From positions 3,680 to 67,679 of the forward strand of contig MHHG01000055.1 in NCBI GenBank assembly GCA_001805965.1: a stretch of DNA of 64,000 bases. Direction: 5' to 3'. The position numbers were made by a program, and so were the translations under genes. Positions 53,271-63,911 of this stretch are shown here, one piece after another (positions within the stretch are counted from its first letter, which is position 1; each line of letters starts with the position of its first letter). The notes beneath the pieces were generated by a model that saw only the letters and a list, made by a program, of their open reading frames with translations, was not told the origin of the DNA and made no database searches. Origin of the DNA: Omnitrophica WOR_2 bacterium RIFOXYA2_FULL_38_17. GTDB taxonomy: Bacteria > Omnitrophota > Gorgyraeia > Zapsychrales > Zapsychraceae.

Positions 53271-53605
53271 TTCATTTATATACTCTTGCTTTGGCTGCTT
53301 TCGCACCAAAACAAAACATGGCTGAACAAAGACAGATTTTACCCACTCAATAATACCAACAATGGTTTTTTCCAATATGCGCATTTTTATCACAAGCACC
53401 TCTCAAAAAAAAATCCCACCCCATTATAAGGAGCAGGACTATTAGAATCCCTTTGTGGCAACTGGCTGTCCTATTTTCTCTTAGGACCCTATAGCTTTGT
53501 GCCCCATCCTTACGAATGGTTTACCATTTACACAACCAACCCAAACTTTCAGTTCAAGTATAACATCAAAAAAAATTATTGTCAAAAAAGAGGCATTTTA
53601 CAAAC

Positions 53606-54628
53606 TTACTTGTTTTTTATTGCCTCAATTTTTTTTTGAAAATCATACACTTTCTTTATTAATACCAAGTGTTCATTCTTGATCGCAGCCAAATTTTCAG
53701 TTAATTGACGCTCTTCAGCTTCTCCACCATCTAAATTCAATTTACTGTCCTTCAATTTCTCTTTAGCAATAGAAAGTACATTGTCAAGATTATCCTTTTG
53801 TTCATTTAAAGCCGCTATTTCCTTTAATAGCTCTTCTTTGCGACTTTCTCTTTCATTACTGACATTAGCAATTTCTTTTTGTATTTTGTCTTCTTCTCCT
53901 AAAATAATCTTAAGCTCGTCTTCAACTATCAACAATTGCTGCTTCAAAAGACTTCTTTTTTTACCGATTTCTTCTACTTCAGATACTGGTCGCATATTAG
54001 TCTCTGTAACTTTGGACAATTGTCTTTGCAATCCTTCAATCTCGTTTTCGCTTCTTTCGATTTGTTCAAGCACTTGTTTCTTAATACTGTCTTCTGTGCC
54101 TTTACTTTTTTTCATATCAAAATTATCAATCTTCATTTGAATATCAGCAATATCTTTACTGACTTTATCGATTGATTGCAGAACTTCTTTTTCTTTAACT
54201 TGCTTTACATCTAATTTCTTCTCTAAAATCTGTTGCTCTCTAACAATCTTACTAACATCATCAGTTAAGCTATTCGCATTTTTCTCAAAGAACATTAGCT
54301 CCTGTTCTTCAGCATCCATATCATCAAGGCTCGCGTTCTGTACTTTCCACTTCATTTTATCTTCTTCAAGACGTATTAACTCTGTTTTTAATGTCTTGAT
54401 ATTCTCACGAAGCTTTTCATTTTCAGAAACAAGCCATATATTCTTTTGTGCAACTTCTTGGGCGCTGTTTTTCAAACTTAACAAACTATACTCAAGAACT
54501 TTTCTTGCTGATAAATTAGCTCTTCTCTCTGCATGACAAAAATCGGCATTAACTTGAATAAATATTACAGTTAAAAATAAAGTTTTTACAATTGTCGTTC
54601 TACAAACAATCTTAGTTTTTTTAAACAT
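53606..54628 (-). CDS. Secreted long coiled-coil protein of unknown function (pil-locus associated)
   Basis: The 340-aa ORF has an N-terminal signal-like hydrophobic segment, then about 300 aa of E/K/L/Q-rich heptad-like sequence. I recognise no catalytic motifs. Confidence 0.5.
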   Translation of the reverse strand: MFKKTKIVCRTTIVKTLFLTVIFIQVNADFCHAERRANLSARKVLEYSLLSLKNSAQEVAQKNIWLVSENEKLRENIKTLKTELIRLEEDKMKWKVQNASLDDMDAEEQELMFFEKNANSLTDDVSKIVREQQILEKKLDVKQVKEKEVLQSIDKVSKDIADIQMKIDNFDMKKSKGTEDSIKKQVLEQIERSENEIEGLQRQLSKVTETNMRPVSEVEEIGKKRSLLKQQLLIVEDELKIILGEEDKIQKEIANVSNERESRKEELLKEIAALNEQKDNLDNVLSIAKEKLKDSKLNLDGGEAEERQLTENLAAIKNEHLVLIKKVYDFQKKIEAIKNK

Positions 54629-54651: not shown

Positions 54652-55857
54652 TTAGACAATTTGTGTAATATTCAATATAGGCATAAATAAAGCAATAACA
54701 ATAAAACCAATCACTATACCAAGAACACCTATGATCAAAGGCTCAATAATACTGGTCAAACCTTCAACGGCTGCGTCAACTTGATCATCATAAAATTCAG
54801 CTATTTTTAAAAGCATTTTTTCCATCTGGCCCGATTTCTCGCCAATACCGATCATCCTAGTGACCATAGGCGGAAATACTTTACTTTTGCTTAATGGTGT
54901 TGCAATACTTTCACCTTCGCGTACACAATTTTTTACATCTTCGACAACATCTTCAAGGACAGTGTTTCCTATAGTCTTACCAACTATATCTAGAGATTCA
55001 AGAATCGGAACACCGCTTTGTATAAGGGTAGCCAGCGTTCGACTAAAACGGCTAATCGCAACTTTACAAAAAAGCTCGCCAAAAAGAGGCATGTTCAGAA
55101 CAGCCCCATCTATAACACGAGCGCCTTTTGCCGTTCTATACCATCTTCCGATAAGAAAAACTACAAAAACAAAAAAACCAACAATCCAAATCAAATAACT
55201 CTTGAGCCCTTCACTCACTCCAATTAGCATTTGAGTCATAGCCGGCAATTCCCTATCAAAAGAATCATAAATGCCCGCAAAAGTGGGAACAACCTTAACT
55301 AATAAAATAATCGTAATAATTGTCGCCATTGATACAATTACTGAAGGATATATCAATGCGGATTTGACTTTACGTTGCAGTTTAAGCGATTTCTCCATAT
55401 ATGTGGATATGCGGTCTAATACTTGACTTAAAACACCCCCAGTCTCTCCAACTCTTACCATGTTTACAAAAAGAGTGTCAAAAACACTAGGGTGTTTATT
55501 AAAAGCAGCAGAAAGGCTTGCTCCATGCTGAATATCATCATAAACATTTGTAAGAACCTTTTGAAACAGCGGATGAGAAACCTGGTCCTTCAAAGCATCA
55601 ATACCCTGAAGTATTGGTATGCCTGCATCAACCATTGTAGCTAATTGTCTTGTAAAAATGACGATCTCATCAGGCTTTACTTTTTTTGATTGAAAAGAAG
55701 AGCCAGTAATCTTGGAATCCTTTACTTCAACAACCGAAATAATAATAAGCTTCTTTTTCCTTAAAGCTTCAATGACTGATTCTTTATTATCCGCAGCAAT
55801 CTTTCCGGTAACATTCCCTGATTCTGCATTCTTTGCAACATATTTAAAAGTTGCCAT
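54652..55857 (-). CDS. pilC: Type IV pilus inner-membrane platform protein PilC (GspF family)
   Basis: The 401-aa ORF has two T2SSF repeats and three TM segments. Confidence 0.9.
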   Translation of the reverse strand: MATFKYVAKNAESGNVTGKIAADNKESVIEALRKKKLIIISVVEVKDSKITGSSFQSKKVKPDEIVIFTRQLATMVDAGIPILQGIDALKDQVSHPLFQKVLTNVYDDIQHGASLSAAFNKHPSVFDTLFVNMVRVGETGGVLSQVLDRISTYMEKSLKLQRKVKSALIYPSVIVSMATIITIILLVKVVPTFAGIYDSFDRELPAMTQMLIGVSEGLKSYLIWIVGFFVFVVFLIGRWYRTAKGARVIDGAVLNMPLFGELFCKVAISRFSRTLATLIQSGVPILESLDIVGKTIGNTVLEDVVEDVKNCVREGESIATPLSKSKVFPPMVTRMIGIGEKSGQMEKMLLKIAEFYDDQVDAAVEGLTSIIEPLIIGVLGIVIGFIVIALFMPILNITQIV

Positions 55858-55940
55858 ATTGGCCTTTCATATAAGTCATTTTTTCAAAACATAAGGAATT
55901 TTAGAGCGAAATGCTCTAGTTTTTAATTGAATACGCTGGC

Positions 55941-56399
55941 TTAATTTCCACCATAAAGATTATTCAAAGCATGATCAATTTCCATTCTAGTGGAAATAAA
56001 AGGTACTATTTCACAACTGGTATCTTGCTTTAATTCCTGAAGAACCGAAAAATCCAAAGGATTCGACATAGCAATACTTAAAATATTACCAACACAATCT
56101 AAAGGGACAACACAATACTTAAAAGCTATCTGCCTTGGGATAATATTCAAGACTTCCTGCTTTATATCATACTGATCAATTGCAATATAAGGAAGCTTAC
56201 ACTGGGCAGACAAAGCAGCAACAACGTCTTTCTCGCTTACAAATCCCAGAGTTGTTAGGATCTCCCCGATGAATCTCTTATCTTTCTTTTGAATATTCAA
56301 AGCCCGACTAAGCTGCTTCCTAACAACCATCTTTCGATTAAGCAGAATCTCTCCTAAGCGACCTTTTTTATTGACAAATATTCCAGAATCAGCAACCAT
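55941..56399 (-). CDS. Standalone T2SSE_N / MshEN-like domain protein (PilB N-terminal domain only, 152 aa)
   Basis: Aligns to the N-domains of both downstream PilB paralogues (LPYIAIDQYDI...IPRQIAFKYCVVPL...LSIAMSNPLD). Tandem motifs RLGEILLNRKMVVRKQLSRALNIQ and FIGEILTTLGFVSEKDVVAALSAQ are present. Confidence 0.6.
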   Translation of the reverse strand: MVADSGIFVNKKGRLGEILLNRKMVVRKQLSRALNIQKKDKRFIGEILTTLGFVSEKDVVAALSAQCKLPYIAIDQYDIKQEVLNIIPRQIAFKYCVVPLDCVGNILSIAMSNPLDFSVLQELKQDTSCEIVPFISTRMEIDHALNNLYGGN

Positions 56400-56413
56400 G
56401 GTCAGCCCCTTAC

Positions 56414-56432
56414 ATATCTGTTATCCAGATAT
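56414..56432 (-). promoter_or_regulatory. Inverted repeat ATATCTG-N5-CAGATAT immediately upstream of the standalone MshEN-like gene
   Basis: 7-5-7 perfect arms read directly from the sequence, about 15 nt upstream of the ATG at 56399, within a 197-nt intergenic region. Confidence 0.3.
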
Positions 56433-56596
56433 TTATTCTACCACTAAATATATTCTTTGAAACAAGAAACTTTGGTTTAGCAATATTCCAATAAAACAAA
56501 TATTTTTTGTGCTTACTTTATATTATTATTTCTTGAAACTAGTTTACATAACCTGCTAAAAATGTTTTTCTTTTTTTGAATTTATTCTAAATCACA

Positions 56597-58303
56597 TTAT
56601 TCATCCATAGCGACTCTTAAAACCTCTTCAAGAGTTATTAACCCAGAAACACATTTCTCGATAGCATCCTCCCAAATAGTCACCATTCCGTTAACCTCAC
56701 ACGCAAACCGTTTTATCTCATCGGATGAGCATCCCCTTAATAGCATCTCCTTGATCTCATCAGTTACCTCTAATACTTCCATCAAAGCCATTCTCCCAGA
56801 ATAGCCTGTACCATGACAAGCCTCACAACCTTTTCCATGATAGAAAACTGTATTGGGCTTGAATTTATAAGTCATCTTATCCAATACTTTCTTCGATATC
56901 TCAACTTTTTCTTTACAGCGTGTACAAATTTTCCTACATAGTCTTTGTGCATTTACCAGCACAAGGCTCGATGCAACCAAAAACGGCTCAACTCCCATAT
57001 CAACCAATCTTGTCAAAGTGCCGGCAGCATCATTTGTATGAAGGGTAGAAAAGACCAACTGCCCTGTTAATGATGCTTTCACTGCTATGTCAGCTGTTTC
57101 ATTATCACGAATCTCACCAACCATTACAATATCTGGGCTCTGTCGCAATATTGCCCTTAACCCCTCAGCAAAAGTCAATCCTATTTCAGGCCTAGCCTGA
57201 ATCTGTGTCAATCCCTCGATCAAATACTCAACCGGGTCCTCGACAGTAATGATGTTCTTATCCACTGTATTGAGCTCATTAATGATTGAGTATAAAGTTG
57301 TCGATTTGCCACTGCCCGTAGGGCCAGTGACCAAGAACATACCAAACGGTTTAACGATGCCATTCTTTAAAACAGCCAGAGACTTCTCAGAAATGCCTAA
57401 GCCATCAAGCCCAACAGTCAAATTACTTTTATCCAGAACACGCATGACAATTTTCTGCCCAAATGTTGTAGGCAATAAAGAAACGCGGAAATCAATTTCT
57501 TTTCCAGCGACTTTCATCTTAAAACGTCCGTCTTGAGGGACATAATTTGAAGTTATATCCAACCTGGACATTATCTTGATTCTTACGATAACGGCATTCT
57601 GGTTTTCCTTAGGCAAATTCAGGATATCTCTCAAAATACCATCTATTCTATAACGAACTCTGACGCCATCTTCCGCTGGTTCAATATGAATATCAGAAGC
57701 TTTCTGCCTTATTGCTTCTTTGACAATAAGATTGACCATTCGGATAACAGGGGCTTTCTCTCCGTCATCTGCAGGTCCACTGCTTCCATCTTCTTCTTGA
57801 TCCATGACTATTTCGAAATCATCTACCTGAATGTCCTGAGTAATATCAGTAACACTCACGCTTTCCGGAACGCCATAATAATTATCAATTGCCTTAATGA
57901 TCTCCGTATTTGTACTCATAACCACATCGATATCTTTGCCTGTGATACTTTTTAGGTCATCAGCGATAAAAACATCTAGCGGGTCTGCAAGCGCCACCGT
58001 AAGGGTGTTCTCAAGCAGTGAAAGAGGGATTATTTTATACTGCCTTGCTACCCGCTCTGGCACGATCTCTTGCAAATAAGGGTCGATCTTATATTTGCTT
58101 AAATTAATAAACGGGATATTTAGCTCTCTTACAAGAAGCATCAAAAGGTCGTCCTCCGCTATCAGCCCTTGTTCTATCAAAGCTTTATCAAGACCAATAT
58201 TCTTTCTCTTTTGCAATACAATAGCAGCATCAAGATCTTTTTTGCTGATCTGCTGAGTCTCAATAAGTGTATTCAAAATTTTATCTTTTAATGTCTTTGC
58301 CAC
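56597..58303 (-). CDS. pilB: Type IV pilus assembly ATPase PilB/GspE family, paralogue 1
   Basis: The 568-aa ORF has an N-terminal T2SSE_N domain, Walker A GPTGSGKST, Asp/His boxes and a tetracysteine CRKIC..C..C..CEACHGTG. It starts at a GTG with a 1-nt overlap onto the upstream stop. Confidence 0.9.
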   Translation of the reverse strand: MAKTLKDKILNTLIETQQISKKDLDAAIVLQKRKNIGLDKALIEQGLIAEDDLLMLLVRELNIPFINLSKYKIDPYLQEIVPERVARQYKIIPLSLLENTLTVALADPLDVFIADDLKSITGKDIDVVMSTNTEIIKAIDNYYGVPESVSVTDITQDIQVDDFEIVMDQEEDGSSGPADDGEKAPVIRMVNLIVKEAIRQKASDIHIEPAEDGVRVRYRIDGILRDILNLPKENQNAVIVRIKIMSRLDITSNYVPQDGRFKMKVAGKEIDFRVSLLPTTFGQKIVMRVLDKSNLTVGLDGLGISEKSLAVLKNGIVKPFGMFLVTGPTGSGKSTTLYSIINELNTVDKNIITVEDPVEYLIEGLTQIQARPEIGLTFAEGLRAILRQSPDIVMVGEIRDNETADIAVKASLTGQLVFSTLHTNDAAGTLTRLVDMGVEPFLVASSLVLVNAQRLCRKICTRCKEKVEISKKVLDKMTYKFKPNTVFYHGKGCEACHGTGYSGRMALMEVLEVTDEIKEMLLRGCSSDEIKRFACEVNGMVTIWEDAIEKCVSGLITLEEVLRVAMDE

Positions 58304-60072
58304 TACTTCTTCTTTTCCTCATCAGGTGATGTTAATCTCAAAACCTCTTCTATTGTTGTTAACCCATCTACTGCTTTCACCAAGCCATCTTCTCTCATAG
58401 TCCGCATACCTTCTTGACGTGCAACTTGTTTTATCTTTACTTCGCCTACCCGCGCCAAGACAGCCTCTTTCACTTTTTGGCTGAATACAAGGATTTCAGT
58501 GATACCAACCCGCCCCTTATAGCCAGTATTAAAACATTGCTTACATCCTTTTGGCCTCATAACTTCTATATTCTGTTTAGGATATAATTTATCAAGCCCA
58601 ACTTTTGAAGCTATCTCCGGAGTAACTATATAAGGCTCACAACATTTCGGGCAGACCTTTCTTAATAGCCTTTGGGCAATGATAGCCAACACAGAAGAAC
58701 ATATTAAAAATGGCTCAATACCCATATTCATCATACGGACTATTGAACCCGCAGCTGTTGTAGTGTGAAGAGAACTCAAAACAAGGTGTCCAGTCAAAGC
58801 AGCCTTAACCGCAATATCTAATGTTTCTTTGTCGCGGATCTCTCCTATCATGATAATATCCGGGTCTTGCCTGAGAATTGATCTTAGACTTGAAGAAAAA
58901 GTTAAGCCCATCTTTGCCTTTATATTAACTTGATTGACCCCTTTCATCTGGTACTCTACAGGGTCCTCAACCGTAACAATATTTTTTTCTGGAGAATCTA
59001 CATACTTTAGAATTGAATAAAGCGTTGTCGTCTTACCGCTTCCAGTGGGACCACAAGTTAAAATCAAGCCATGCGGCTTTACAGCGCAGTCCTTTAAGCG
59101 CTGCAAAGCAGTTGCTTCAAACCCTAAATTTTCAACATCAAGCACTGTTCCCTGCTGGTCCAAGACTCTCAACACAATTTTTTCGCCAACAGCAGTAGGC
59201 AAAACATTAACGCGAAAGTCAACCTCTCTGTCACCTGAAATTATCGTCTTAAACCTTCCATCTTGAGGCAACCTGTGTTCTGAAATATCTAAATTTGAAA
59301 TGACCTTTATTCTTGAAACCAATGGAAAATGCAACACTTTTGTCATTCGATCAATCTCTCGAATGACCCCATCAATCCTGTACCTGATGCGGACTGCTTT
59401 TTCTAATGGCTCTATGAACACATCGCTAGCTTTCGCAAACACTGCTTGCTGAATTATCGTGTCTGTTAACTTAATAATCGGCGCCTCGTCAGATATTGCC
59501 TCAACAGATGACTGCTCATCACTGTGTCCATCTTTAATTAATTCAAGGTCTTCAGTATCTCTAAAATCTTGAATGATCTCATCAAAGGTCTCATTATTTT
59601 TTTCCTGCTCTGGACTTTCCTGATCCTGCTCATCCTCATGCTTCAAATAATATTTCTCAATAGCTTTATGAATATCTGCAAACCTGCATATAATAGGAAT
59701 GATCATATAGCCTGTAAGAGCCTTAACATTATCTATTATAAATATGTTCAACGGATCCGCCATCGCGAGGGTCAGCTGATCTCCCAAGAGAGAAACAGGT
59801 ATAATTTGATATTTTAGTGCAATATCTTTTGGAATAGTTTGAATTACATCTGGCGAGATATTAAAACTAGCGATCTTAATTAAGGGAAGCTCAAGGCTTT
59901 CACTCAACACTTGGGTCAACTGGTCTTGACTCACAAAATTCATATCAACAAGTATCTTACTTAATTCTCCGCCTATTTTCTTTTGCTCAATTAACGCTTG
60001 CTCTAGCTCATTGGCGGTAATAAGTTCATCTCGAATAAGAATTTCTTTTAAGCGGTCTTTAAAAGATGCCAT
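58303..60072 (-). CDS. pilB: Type IV pilus assembly ATPase PilB/GspE family, paralogue 2
   Basis: The 589-aa ORF has an N-terminal T2SSE_N domain with RLKEILIRDELITANELEQALIEQ, an acidic linker, Walker A GPTGSGKTT and a tetracysteine CPKCC...CKQCFNTG. Confidence 0.9.
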   Translation of the reverse strand: MASFKDRLKEILIRDELITANELEQALIEQKKIGGELSKILVDMNFVSQDQLTQVLSESLELPLIKIASFNISPDVIQTIPKDIALKYQIIPVSLLGDQLTLAMADPLNIFIIDNVKALTGYMIIPIICRFADIHKAIEKYYLKHEDEQDQESPEQEKNNETFDEIIQDFRDTEDLELIKDGHSDEQSSVEAISDEAPIIKLTDTIIQQAVFAKASDVFIEPLEKAVRIRYRIDGVIREIDRMTKVLHFPLVSRIKVISNLDISEHRLPQDGRFKTIISGDREVDFRVNVLPTAVGEKIVLRVLDQQGTVLDVENLGFEATALQRLKDCAVKPHGLILTCGPTGSGKTTTLYSILKYVDSPEKNIVTVEDPVEYQMKGVNQVNIKAKMGLTFSSSLRSILRQDPDIIMIGEIRDKETLDIAVKAALTGHLVLSSLHTTTAAGSIVRMMNMGIEPFLICSSVLAIIAQRLLRKVCPKCCEPYIVTPEIASKVGLDKLYPKQNIEVMRPKGCKQCFNTGYKGRVGITEILVFSQKVKEAVLARVGEVKIKQVARQEGMRTMREDGLVKAVDGLTTIEEVLRLTSPDEEKKK

Positions 60073-60521
60073 TATTTTTGTTTATAGTATTTTTCAATGG
60101 ATTGTTTAATATCAGTAGTAGTGCTTACAAAGACCTGAACAATACATCCTGTCATAAGTTCAATATCTTCTGAAGCTTTTAGATTCAACGGGTCAGACAT
60201 TGCTATTGTTAAACTTTTACCTATCTTATCAATCGGAATAAGACAAAACTGCCTGCACACTTTTTCGGGGATCGCATTTATAACTTCATCATCAATTTCA
60301 TAATTCAGTAAGGGCAAATAAGGAAAGCCATACTGACATGTTATTGCCTGTGCAATATCTTTCTCTGTAGCAAAATTCAACTCAACAAGAACTTCACCTA
60401 TCAATCCACCATGCTTTTCCCTGTATTCCAGAGCCTCTTCTATTTGGGCATGATTTATAACTCCTCTTTCGATAAGAAGTTCTCCCAGTTTTTTATGTGT
60501 ATCTCTATTGAATTGTTTCAT
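60072..60521 (-). CDS. Standalone T2SSE_N / MshEN-like domain protein (149 aa)
   Basis: KLGELLIERGVINHAQIEEALEYR and LIGEVLVELNFATEKDIAQAITCQ tandem motifs, then PYLPLLNYEID...IPEKVCRQFCLIPI...LTIAMSDPLN matching PilB N-domains. ATGA overlap with pilB-2. Confidence 0.6.
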   Translation of the reverse strand: MKQFNRDTHKKLGELLIERGVINHAQIEEALEYREKHGGLIGEVLVELNFATEKDIAQAITCQYGFPYLPLLNYEIDDEVINAIPEKVCRQFCLIPIDKIGKSLTIAMSDPLNLKASEDIELMTGCIVQVFVSTTTDIKQSIEKYYKQK

Positions 60522-61577: not shown

Positions 61578-63911
61578 TTAGGTCAATCTTTCAATTAAAT
61601 CTATTACAACATTGATGTTGCCAGACTTTTCTATTATTGGGATTTCACCAAGTTCACCACATTCTTCCTTAACCTCACTTAAACGTTTATCTGTAAGAAC
61701 TATTATCGGGATCGCTGCGTACTGAGAATTCTGTTTTAATCTTCCCAAAACCTCATATCCGTTCATATTTGGCATGACAATATCAAGCAATATTAAATCT
61801 GTTTTTTTTGTTTTTAAATAATCCAGCGCCTCTTCACCATCAAAAACCTGTTCTGTAATAATGCCGTAGCGGCCCAATCTTGTTGAAAGCAATCTTCCGA
61901 TCTGCGGATGATCATCAACAATCAATACTTTTTTCTTTTTTTCGCATTCTTCTAAAGCCCTTATTGCTAATTCATTCTTATTCCGACCATCTTTTGGATG
62001 GAAAGCCAATCCAAACTTTACTTTTATCCCCAAGTCATCTTTCATCATGGCAATTCTCTCACGCAAAGCGCCCTTTATTTTCTCTAATAAGACCATCCCG
62101 CCTTTTTTATCTGTATCAGCAAGGGCAATATGAATTGTATCTTTATCATATAAGATATATTTATCTGTTGTCCTTGAAAGCGATCTTGACAATATTTCAA
62201 AAGCAATATTTATGATTTTATTAGCAAATGCTTCTCCATACTTGGTCATGACCATATCAATGCCCATAAAACGAGCAACAATAAAAACAGAATCCTTATT
62301 CTTTATTTTTGTCTCTGAAAATATCCAATCAACATCATGATCAAATTTTTGCTTTAATTTCAATTTGCTTGGAAGAGTAAAAAAGAAAGTTGCACCCTTA
62401 CCTGTCTCGCTCTCTGCCCAGATTTGCCCGTCATGAAGGTCAATTAAAGATTTGCTTATAGTCAAGCCTAAGCCCGTACCTTTTATTCCCGGGCCATGTA
62501 TTCTTCCAAATTGGGTAAATTTATCAAAAAGCTTTGGGATATTCTCCTTTTCAATCCCCAAACCCGTATCTGAAATCCTAAACAGGCATCCTCCATCCTG
62601 CTCATTGATCTCAATCTCTATTTCGCCACCTTCAGGTGTAAATTTATGAGCATTATTCAATAAATTTGTAACGACCTGTATTATTTTATCTTCATCAAGA
62701 AATATAAACATTTCCTTTTCTGGGAATATTGCTCTTATCTTTTGCTGCTTTGTATCTAAAACCTTTCTATATTCATCCGTCAATTTATTTATTATTGCTT
62801 TTAGGTCAACAATGGTCTTTCTAAGAGTGATCTCTCCGGATTCTATTTTAGAAACATCTAATAGATCATTCACAATTGTTTGTAACCTGTGAAGATTGTC
62901 CTTTGAAGCATTTAAAAGCTCTTTTTGCTGTTCATTAATTCCGCCAACAACGCCATCTAAAATAAGGTTTATGCACTCAGTTGATATCGCCAGCGGAGTC
63001 CTTAACTCATGGGAAACAGTGGAAACAAAATCAGATTTCAATTGATCTAATTTTTTTAGTTCCAAATTCTTTCTTTCAAGATTCTTATACAGATTCTTAA
63101 TTGATTCGTTAGTTTTTTGTAGCCCCCAGGATTGTTGTTCCAGCTTATCTCTAGCATTATCTAAATCTTTTTCAGCACTTTTTTTTGCTGTAATATCACT
63201 AAATGATTCGATACCGCCAATAATATGGCCCTCATCATTTTTTAAGATGTCAGAATTCTTAAGAATAGTTATTCTTTCACCATTTTTTCTCTTAATAGAA
63301 CACTCGGTCTCAACAATCGGCTTCTCTACATCATTACTATAAAGCCCGCAGTAAGACTCACAGGGATATTCAGCGAATATATCGCATTTTTTACCAATAA
63401 CCTCTTGGGCGGTATATCCTGTAAGCTCTTCGGCCTTTTTATTCCAGCCAGTTACAACTTTGTTTTCATCAACAGTAAATACAGCGCTCGGAACAACTCT
63501 AAAAATGCGCTCCAAATCCTTATTTGCTTTAATTACAGCTTCCTCAGCATGCTTATACACTGTTATGTCGCTCATTAAATGAATTGAGCCTAATAAATCT
63601 TTATTATCATCAAAAAGAGGTGCCGTTCGGATAAAGAACCATTTATTAAAAATAGGCTCCCAATGCTCCTTTTGTTCATATTTTTTTGAGTCCTTTAGAA
63701 CACAGTATGGACAATCAGATATAGGCTGGTTCTTAGAATGTATGACCTCATAACATTTCTTGTTCAATAAAGCACTTTCATCCTTGCCAATAAACTTTAA
63801 AAAAGCCTTGTTCACTTTCTTTATTCCATTCTCTAGATCAAGAATAAAGATGAAATCTTCTAAAACATCAAAAGCTGGAGACCAAAACCGATTATAATCA
63901 AGATTTTTCAT
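61578..63911 (-). CDS. Hybrid sensor histidine kinase: two PAS domains, HisKA-HATPase, degenerate GGDEF-like domain, C-terminal receiver
   Basis: H-box VSHELRTPL; G-boxes ISDTGLGI and GTGLGLTI. The inter-domain segment IDMVMTKYGEAFANKII...RTTDKYILYDKDTIHIALADTD aligns to GGDEF, with GGDEF replaced by DKDTI and RxxD five residues upstream. C-terminal VLIVDDHP...LLDIVMP receiver. Confidence 0.8.
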   Translation of the reverse strand: MKNLDYNRFWSPAFDVLEDFIFILDLENGIKKVNKAFLKFIGKDESALLNKKCYEVIHSKNQPISDCPYCVLKDSKKYEQKEHWEPIFNKWFFIRTAPLFDDNKDLLGSIHLMSDITVYKHAEEAVIKANKDLERIFRVVPSAVFTVDENKVVTGWNKKAEELTGYTAQEVIGKKCDIFAEYPCESYCGLYSNDVEKPIVETECSIKRKNGERITILKNSDILKNDEGHIIGGIESFSDITAKKSAEKDLDNARDKLEQQSWGLQKTNESIKNLYKNLERKNLELKKLDQLKSDFVSTVSHELRTPLAISTECINLILDGVVGGINEQQKELLNASKDNLHRLQTIVNDLLDVSKIESGEITLRKTIVDLKAIINKLTDEYRKVLDTKQQKIRAIFPEKEMFIFLDEDKIIQVVTNLLNNAHKFTPEGGEIEIEINEQDGGCLFRISDTGLGIEKENIPKLFDKFTQFGRIHGPGIKGTGLGLTISKSLIDLHDGQIWAESETGKGATFFFTLPSKLKLKQKFDHDVDWIFSETKIKNKDSVFIVARFMGIDMVMTKYGEAFANKIINIAFEILSRSLSRTTDKYILYDKDTIHIALADTDKKGGMVLLEKIKGALRERIAMMKDDLGIKVKFGLAFHPKDGRNKNELAIRALEECEKKKKVLIVDDHPQIGRLLSTRLGRYGIITEQVFDGEEALDYLKTKKTDLILLDIVMPNMNGYEVLGRLKQNSQYAAIPIIVLTDKRLSEVKEECGELGEIPIIEKSGNINVVIDLIERLT

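Follow-up and report, generated by a model that had tools for sequence, protein, structure and literature searches.

A free-standing MshEN domain protein, predicted to bind c-di-GMP, from the type IVa pilus gene cluster of Omnitrophota

Results

Gene order of the pilus cluster

The DNA analysed here is a 64,000-nt stretch (the window) from Omnitrophica WOR_2 bacterium RIFOXYA2_FULL_38_17, whose minus strand carries a run of type IV pilus genes. Within this run, the gene that we call sB lies between pilC and the first of two pilB genes, and a second small gene, sA, stands at the upstream end:

54652–55857, minus strand: pilC, T2SSF platform protein, directly downstream of sB (Pfam T2SSF, 222 bits)
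55941–56399, minus strand: sB, gene for a 152-aa single-domain MshEN/GSPII protein (ORF with ATG start, Pfam, AF2, Foldseek)
56597–58303, minus strand: pilB-1, 568 aa, with a degenerate MshEN N-domain (Pfam T2SSE and MshEN)
58303–60072, minus strand: pilB-2, 589 aa, with a degenerate MshEN N-domain (Pfam T2SSE and MshEN)
60072–60521, minus strand: sA, the first free-standing MshEN protein, 149 aa (Pfam MshEN, 69.5 bits)

A preliminary description of this DNA had called a 152-residue, free-standing MshEN-like protein between pilC and pilB-1. The ORF is real and opens with ATG, and Pfam confirms the position, with a T2SSF protein on one side and a T2SSE protein on the other. The end coordinate of sA, which is 32% identical to sB, is the start of pilB-2 (60072), and the ORF coordinates of pilB-2 and pilB-1 share base 58303.

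To place sB in a wider context we compared seven loci: that of the window, a close pair at 78% and 67% identity, and four more distant loci at 45–50%; individual loci are named below by our own designations where needed. The same order recurs in all seven: sA (148–149 aa), a PilB (575–589 aa), a second PilB (568–570 aa), a spacer, sB (152–153 aa) and PilC. Downstream of pilC follow the pilin, PilM/N/O and secretin genes, in an order that varies by lineage; no pilin gene was called within the stretch fetched for L014 and L015. Judged from this synteny, the type IVa pilus cluster is conserved in the uncultured phylum Omnitrophota, and the sB family has its place in it directly before pilC. The two genes are neighbours in 7/7 loci and are separated by only 1–5 nt in three of them. 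The earlier suggestion that sB is expressed together with pilC thus stands as far as adjacency goes, and co-production itself is a prediction from the sequence.

Several further features of the cluster deserve mention. Tandem PilB-type ATPases (568 and 589 aa in the window) are kept in all seven loci, and no PilT-type ATPase was found among the cluster ORFs scanned with Pfam (43034–63911). Directly downstream of pilC, a 340-aa ORF (53606–54628, minus strand) encodes a highly charged, apparently coiled-coil protein with no Pfam match. A gene of about 307–340 aa, likewise without a Pfam match, occupies the same position in L008, L009, L010, L011, L016 and L017, and its place is taken by a gene of about 150 aa in L014 and L015. 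Between sB and pilC lies an 8-bp hairpin (55901–55919; TAGAGC..GCTCTA core) that is terminator-like on the plus strand only. It is kept in L008, not in L011, and is missing where sB and pilC abut, and we rejected it as a significant element.

Fold and domain content of sB

HMM support for a T2SSE_N domain had been named as a test of the first reading of sB, and it was found far beyond chance. The protein matches Pfam PF05157 (MshEN) with 62.3 bits (E 4.3e-17, cut-off 23.1) over residues 68–151, which cover model positions 2–86 of 90. This match region corresponds to the C-terminal subdomain:

55947–56198, minus strand: MshEN_C (T2SSE_N1-like) alpha/beta subdomain of sB, residues 68–151 (Pfam PF05157 match region)

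An AF2 model built on 71 family sequences (pLDDT 89.2, pTM 0.77) adopts the two-subdomain MshEN fold, a four-helix bundle followed by a three-stranded sheet with flanking helices. The bundle is formed by helices 15–21, 27–40, 44–50 and 56–67; in the alpha/beta part after them, strands 97–103, 106–111 and 130–135 have helices on their flanks. Foldseek returned V. cholerae MshE with c-di-GMP (5HTL) as the best match of this model (TM 0.79–0.84, rmsd 2.2 Å, 139 columns). Further top matches were PilF GSPII-B with c-di-GMP, the X. citri PilB N-domain–PilZ complex (7LKO) and the XpsE N-domain, and EpsE(N1)–EpsL (2BH1) was also among the matches.

PF05157 is the sole Pfam match of sB; the T2SSE ATPase domain (PF00437) was not found, and the reading frame stops after residue 152. 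sB is therefore a complete MshEN (GSPII) domain, with an N-terminal four-helix bundle and an N1-like alpha/beta subdomain, and no ATPase. Since an ATPase domain is missing and the orthologues are 152–153 aa long, the labels 'PilB' and 'GspE, partial' carried by relatives of sB are misnomers. HMM, predicted fold and family all bear out the description of sB as a free-standing MshEN protein.

The candidate c-di-GMP site

The bundle contains two motifs separated by a short linker, and together they form the candidate c-di-GMP site:

56289–56360, minus strand: motif I, residues 14–37, RLGEILLNRKMVVRKQLSRALNIQ (ungapped alignment to MshE)
56274–56288, minus strand: linker KKDKR between the motifs, five residues, 38–42 (sequence reading)
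56202–56273, minus strand: motif II, residues 43–66, FIGEILTTLGFVSEKDVVAALSAQ (ungapped alignment to MshE)

Both motifs had been read exactly in the preliminary description, including the lysine that replaces the second glycine of motif I. sB aligns to V. cholerae MshE residues 7–112 with no gaps and an offset of 5 residues, and over MshE residues 9–61 it has the layout of two 24-residue motifs and a 5-residue linker, again gapless. The linker has the length of the published MshEN motif spacer, which is 5 residues (PMC5013675). For motif I the equivalences (sB to MshE) are R14 to R9, G16 to G11, K23 to G18, L30 to L25, L34 to L29 and Q37 to Q32; for motif II they are F43 to R38, G45 to G40, G52 to G47, V59 to L54, L63 to L58 and Q66 to Q61. 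Further along, N113 of sB corresponds to D108 of MshE. K23 can be assigned to the G18 position because the alignment is ungapped, with its offset of 5.

In MshE, the backbone NH groups of G11 and G40 bind the guanines, and binding is lost with G11L or G40I; the glutamine that ends each of the two motifs touches the ribose-phosphate, two leucine clusters stack on the guanines, and G18 and G47 form the inter-helix turns (PMC5013675). We scored the conservation of sB residues on 71 family members, 41–51% identical to sB, with two closer orthologues at 66–78%. Both position-3 glycines are present in sB (G16 and G45) and in 71/71 family members. The terminal glutamines, Q37 and Q66, are likewise invariant in the family, and the positions of the leucine clusters (L15, L30, L34, I44, V59 and L63) are all hydrophobic in sB. 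Altogether, the equivalents of G11, G40, G47, L29, L58, Q32 and Q61 are invariant in the 71 members.

The deviations are systematic and affect the opening residue of both motifs as well as the G18 position. Position 1 of motif I is leucine in 63 of the 71 members and arginine in sB, motif II opens with F, Y or V across the family, and most members lack both canonical stacking arginines. At the G18 position the family has N, K, G or H. The corresponding turn of the sB model is predicted with a pLDDT above 90, and N and K commonly replace Gly at helix C-caps. The published relaxed motif (Wang 2016) is failed by sB at three positions, namely motif I position 10 (K for G/A/S) and motif II positions 1 (F) and 7 (T), and the strict motif is failed too. 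Once a hydrophobic first residue is allowed, as in PilF GSPII-B, the mismatches drop to one per motif.

Thermus PilF GSPII-B gives a measure of what the first positions tolerate. It carries K167 and L196 there and binds c-di-GMP with a KD of 6 nM; K167L lowers this to 2 nM and L196R weakens binding 4-fold, and its authors therefore widened the consensus to (R/K/L)LG (PMC11731258). F43 of sB aligns with L196. For the reconstructed PilF GSPII-A, binding was lost when motif II began with serine, and a version with ideal motifs bound only after removal of inter-subdomain contacts and the N-cap (PMC12002112). The GSPII-A result means that motif conservation is no guarantee of binding. Judged by PilF GSPII-B, the motif deviations of sB should be tolerable; c-di-GMP binding by sB is likely.

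PilB paralogs and the c-di-GMP context

The position-3 glycine of both motifs is missing from both PilB paralogs in 7/7 loci. PilB-1 has L or I for G11, D or E for G40 and E for Q61 in all seven; PilB-2 has K or T for G11 and S for G40 throughout, and G for Q61 in four. The position-3 glycines are kept by sA and sB in the seven loci, and sA keeps G11, G18, G40 and Q61. The glycines being lost from the PilBs and kept in sA and sB, the binding signature has moved from the ATPases to their free-standing paralogs. The deviations of the two small proteins are also complementary in all seven loci: sA keeps G18 and has N or K at G47, and sB has K or N at G18 and keeps G47.

Elements associated with c-di-GMP neighbour the module. 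A gene for a HAMP-GAF-GGDEF cyclase lies directly upstream of sA in three of the distant loci, L014, L015 and L016. Six of the eight loci scanned contain a c-di-GMP-I-class riboswitch, which in five lies upstream of the pilin gene (the window, L008, L010, L011 and L017); that of L015 is downstream of pilM. The element of the window is:

53453–53534, minus strand: predicted c-di-GMP-I-GGC riboswitch aptamer, Rfam RF03167 (61.5 bits, gathering score 59, full-length match)

This aptamer sits in the 524 nt that separate the 340-aa coiled-coil gene from the pilin gene, and the pilin start follows about 370 nt downstream of it. L008, L010 and L011 have a GGC-type aptamer in the corresponding position, and L017 has a canonical c-di-GMP-I aptamer there. 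With a predicted cyclase gene and a predicted riboswitch as its neighbours, the cluster has a strong putative c-di-GMP context.

The window itself also encodes a 777-aa hybrid histidine kinase (PAS-HisKA-HATPase-GGDEF-REC; 61578–63911, minus strand) with a weak GGDEF match (24.8 bits). By eye, its GGDEF active-site motif reads YDKDT, and an RxxD I-site-like RTTD lies the canonical 5 residues upstream; the domain may be c-di-GMP-binding and non-catalytic. In more distant Omnitrophota the position of this kinase is taken by the HAMP-GAF-GGDEF protein.

The spacer upstream of sB

sB is preceded by a non-coding spacer in which the following features were recognised:

56400–56596, minus strand: spacer between pilB-1 and sB, 197 nt, 25% GC (ORF coordinates)
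56406–56411, minus strand: Shine-Dalgarno-like AAGGGG, 6 nt before the sB ATG (sequence reading)
56414–56420 / 56426–56432 (56414–56432), no strand assigned: 7-5-7 inverted repeat ATATCTG-GATAA-CAGATAT, probably not functional
56429–56472, minus strand: conserved 44-nt block, AAGTTTCTTGTTTCAAAGAATATATTTAGTGGTAGAATAAATAT, kept in the window, L008 and L011
56435–56443, minus strand: extended -10-like element, TGGTAGAAT, a candidate promoter proposed from conservation and fixed distance

The preliminary description had noted the 197-nt spacer and a perfect 7-5-7 inverted repeat within it, and proposed from these that sB is independently, and possibly repressor-controlled, expressed. Spacer and repeat are both present as described, and six other Omnitrophota loci also have a non-coding spacer, of 69–236 nt. 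Repressor control through the repeat did not hold up. At least one such 7-5-7 repeat occurs in 21% of 5000 dinucleotide-preserving shuffles of the spacer, the rate across the window is 0.18 per 197 nt, and the L008 and L011 spacers have unrelated sequence in its stead. RNA folding of the spacer (56400–56596) is no better than that of shuffles (z = 0.16), and an Rfam scan of the same interval found no RNA family. At chance level and not conserved in the orthologous spacers, the repeat was rejected as an operator.

The 44-nt block is the only part of the spacer that is conserved among the three closest loci, namely the window, L008 and L011; the remainder cannot be aligned. Within it, TGGTA(G/A)AAT ends exactly 35 nt upstream of the sB ATG in all three, and TGTTAAAAT is found 30 nt upstream of sB in L017. 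Taken by itself, the pattern TGNTA[GA]AAT is as frequent in the window as chance predicts, so the case for a -10-like element rests on its conservation. An AAGG(A/G)G Shine-Dalgarno-like sequence is also kept in L008 and L011. The block further contains a palindrome, TTTCTTG-N4-CAAGAAA, which is perfect in L011 only and imperfect in the window and L008; if any operator exists, this would be a better candidate than the 7-5-7 repeat.

The other half of the proposal was independent transcription of sB. The conserved block and the -10-like element speak for it; against it, a sigma-70 consensus scan returned no promoter in the spacer (56400–56596), and a terminator scan of the minus strand found none after pilB-1 and none in the spacer. 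Read-through from pilB-1 into sB is possible, there being no terminator after pilB-1. Transcription of sB from the spacer is plausible on this pattern of conservation.

Family, distribution and selection

sB is 100% identical to the hypothetical protein A2Y03_11340 of Omnitrophica WOR_2 bacterium GWF2_38_59. A word-index protein search with sB returned 5 relatives, and an exhaustive representative search 16,373 MshEN relatives. The best matches of the latter include many single-domain proteins about 150 aa long and some multi-MshEN proteins of about 1000–1300 aa with 4–7 matched stretches. A profile search, for which 13 single-domain proteins made up the query alignment, gave more than 2,354 matches at E<=1e-10, PilB N-domains included. 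The best 120 of these are all PF05157-only proteins of 140–210 aa, mostly about 150, and every organism-named protein among those 120 belongs to Candidatus Omnitrophota. A scan of genome contigs with sB gave seven loci, all of them full-length PilB/GspE ATPases of other phyla, and it is therefore uninformative on stand-alone MshEN forms.

Orthologues of sB are 152–153 aa long, and start and stop are kept down to about 45% identity. Against these orthologues sB has a dN/dS of 0.17–0.29, compared with 0.05 for pilC and 0.04–0.07 for sA, and its non-synonymous evolution is 3–5 times faster than that of either. The ungapped dN/dS of pilB-2 against L011 gave implausible values, probably from internal indels, and was left out. 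By these measures sB is an intact gene under purifying selection, and for this reason not a pilB remnant. The idea that it is a decaying, functionless piece of a truncated third pilB could appeal to its content, the N-terminal domain only of a PilB-like protein, and to database labels such as 'hypothetical' and 'GspE, partial', but conservation (of length, start and stop, of single-domain form in the best 120 of more than 2,354 profile matches, and of position in 7/7 loci) and dN/dS effectively refute it, the fold is confidently predicted, and we give it next to no credence.

Discussion

A proposed trans-acting receptor for the pilus machine

We lean towards a reading in which sB serves the pilus machine in trans, as a c-di-GMP receptor or adaptor that is made together with PilC and acts on PilB, PilC or PilM. 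It draws on what is seen at the locus, namely the fold and family of sB, the synteny, the conservation of its residues, the loss of motifs from the PilBs and the neighbouring c-di-GMP elements; from these we infer that sB binds the ligand, what it acts on and which way the effect runs. One c-di-GMP molecule would be bound in the four-helix bundle of sB, as in MshE and PilF GSPII-B, a step suggested by residue conservation. The N1-like subdomain would then attach sB to PilB, PilC or PilM, by analogy with the role of this subdomain in GspE and PilB, and sB would relay the c-di-GMP signal in trans to the PilB ATPases, whose N-domains, having lost the motif glycines, are predicted not to bind the nucleotide themselves. 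sB would be made with PilC; its transcription would probably begin at a conserved promoter of the extended -10 type that lies about 35 nt before the start codon, and read-through from pilB-1 might add to it.

A bolder version, which we regard as very doubtful, makes sA and sB exchangeable ligand-gated adaptors that choose which PilB engages PilC, and thereby a c-di-GMP-driven motor switch. As the part of the cluster examined has no PilT, such a switch might stand in place of a PilB/PilT extension–retraction pair.

sB could instead be a nucleotide-independent regulator or decoy, which would mimic the PilB N-domain and either compete for docking on PilM or PilC or cap the PilB hexamer; the expression level of sB, not c-di-GMP, would then set pilus assembly or the choice of ATPase. 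We consider this possible, though unlikely. It agrees with the completeness of the N1-like subdomain, which is the part of sB that Pfam recognises, and with the behaviour of homologous N-domains as protein–protein modules (PilB(N)–PilZ, 7LKO; EpsE(N1)–EpsL, 2BH1). The failure of sB to match the strict and relaxed published motifs, the lack of both stacking arginines in most family members, and the separate upstream region with its conserved promoter-like block point the same way. It leaves unexplained, however, why 71 members that share about 45% identity all keep exactly the ligand-contacting G, Q and L residues, which both PilBs were free to lose. Hydrophobic first motif residues, moreover, still give nanomolar binding in PilF GSPII-B, and the strong c-di-GMP context of cyclase gene and riboswitch would be left aside.

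The trans-acting receptor reading overlaps with a third possibility, in which sB and sA are the detached extra GSPII domains of a split (MshEN)2-4-T2SSE protein; the two differ in that sB would here be an obligatory, stoichiometric PilB subunit required for hexamer function, not a regulator. Documented (MshEN)n-T2SSE architectures (PMC5013675 Suppl. Table 4), with (MshEN)2-4-T2SSE in Thermus PilF and in clostridial and Nitrospirota ATPases, lend it a precedent. Multi-MshEN proteins of about 1000–1300 aa are among the best-scoring relatives of sB, sA directly adjoins pilB-2, and the order of the module is fixed in 7/7 loci. Yet in every locus the spacer parts sB from the pilB genes and sB is coupled to pilC, and the weaker constraint on sB than on sA and pilC would be unusual for an obligate core subunit. 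We judge it quite unlikely.

The MshEN domain, its ligand chemistry and its non-ATPase architectures are already known. [quoted passage not shown] Work on it has dealt almost wholly with MshEN domains that form, in cis, the N-terminus of a secretion or pilus ATPase. The arrangement across Omnitrophota is the opposite: the glycines needed for binding are lost from the ATPases and kept in a pair of small free-standing MshEN proteins of the same operon, and in most loci examined the predicted c-di-GMP riboswitch would control the pilin gene. Our literature search found no description of the Omnitrophota module as such (two stand-alone MshEN proteins, two motif-degenerate PilBs, a cyclase gene and a pilin riboswitch). 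The type IV pili of Omnitrophota are a leading candidate for host or prey attachment. If sB does bind c-di-GMP and dock on the motor, it would represent a natural trans version of MshEN signalling and a clean system for studying the transfer of the signal from ligand to ATPase, which is unclear even for MshE (PMC5013675). Thousands of database entries labelled 'hypothetical' or 'PilB/GspE partial' could be re-annotated.

Comparison with known systems

The closest structural counterpart of sB, V. cholerae MshE (5HTL, PMC5013675), has the same two-subdomain fold and the same gapless 24+5+24 layout, and sB keeps its residues G11, L10, L25, L29, Q32, G40, G47, L58 and Q61. sB differs from MshE in having no T2SSE ATPase and in the replacements G18 to K, R38 to F, V44 to T, L54 to V and D108 to N, and its c-di-GMP binding is predicted.

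Thermus PilF GSPII-B (8PDK, 8PE0; PMC11731258) resembles sB in that non-arginine first motif residues (K167 and L196) stack on the guanines, and PilF as a whole in that its ATPase, with a non-binding first GSPII domain, is provided with additional ones. The PilF domains, however, are fused in cis as (GSPII)3-ATPase, whereas those of Omnitrophota are encoded by separate genes, and sB is only about 21% identical to GSPII-B.

The P. aeruginosa protein PA3740 ('MshEN - xT2SSE_N1', Wang 2016 Suppl. Table 4) is, like sB, an MshEN protein without an ATPase. It is a reported c-di-GMP binder that affects swarming motility (PMC5013675 Suppl. Table 4 for the architecture), and so offers a precedent for a free-standing MshEN receptor, to which sB is likened by description. 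PA3740 has a highly diverged C-subdomain and, in the source, no link to a pil operon; sB, by contrast, has a canonical C-subdomain and a fixed place upstream of pilC. The cyanobacterial EbsA–Hfq–PilB complex was also considered as a parallel for stand-alone MshEN proteins and set aside as irrelevant.

The Xanthomonas PilB–PilZ–FimX system (7LKO) follows the logic that we propose for sB, since a sensor acts in trans for a PilB that does not itself bind. There, however, the trans receptor is the degenerate EAL protein FimX, bridged to PilB by PilZ, and not a paralogous MshEN protein as in Omnitrophota.
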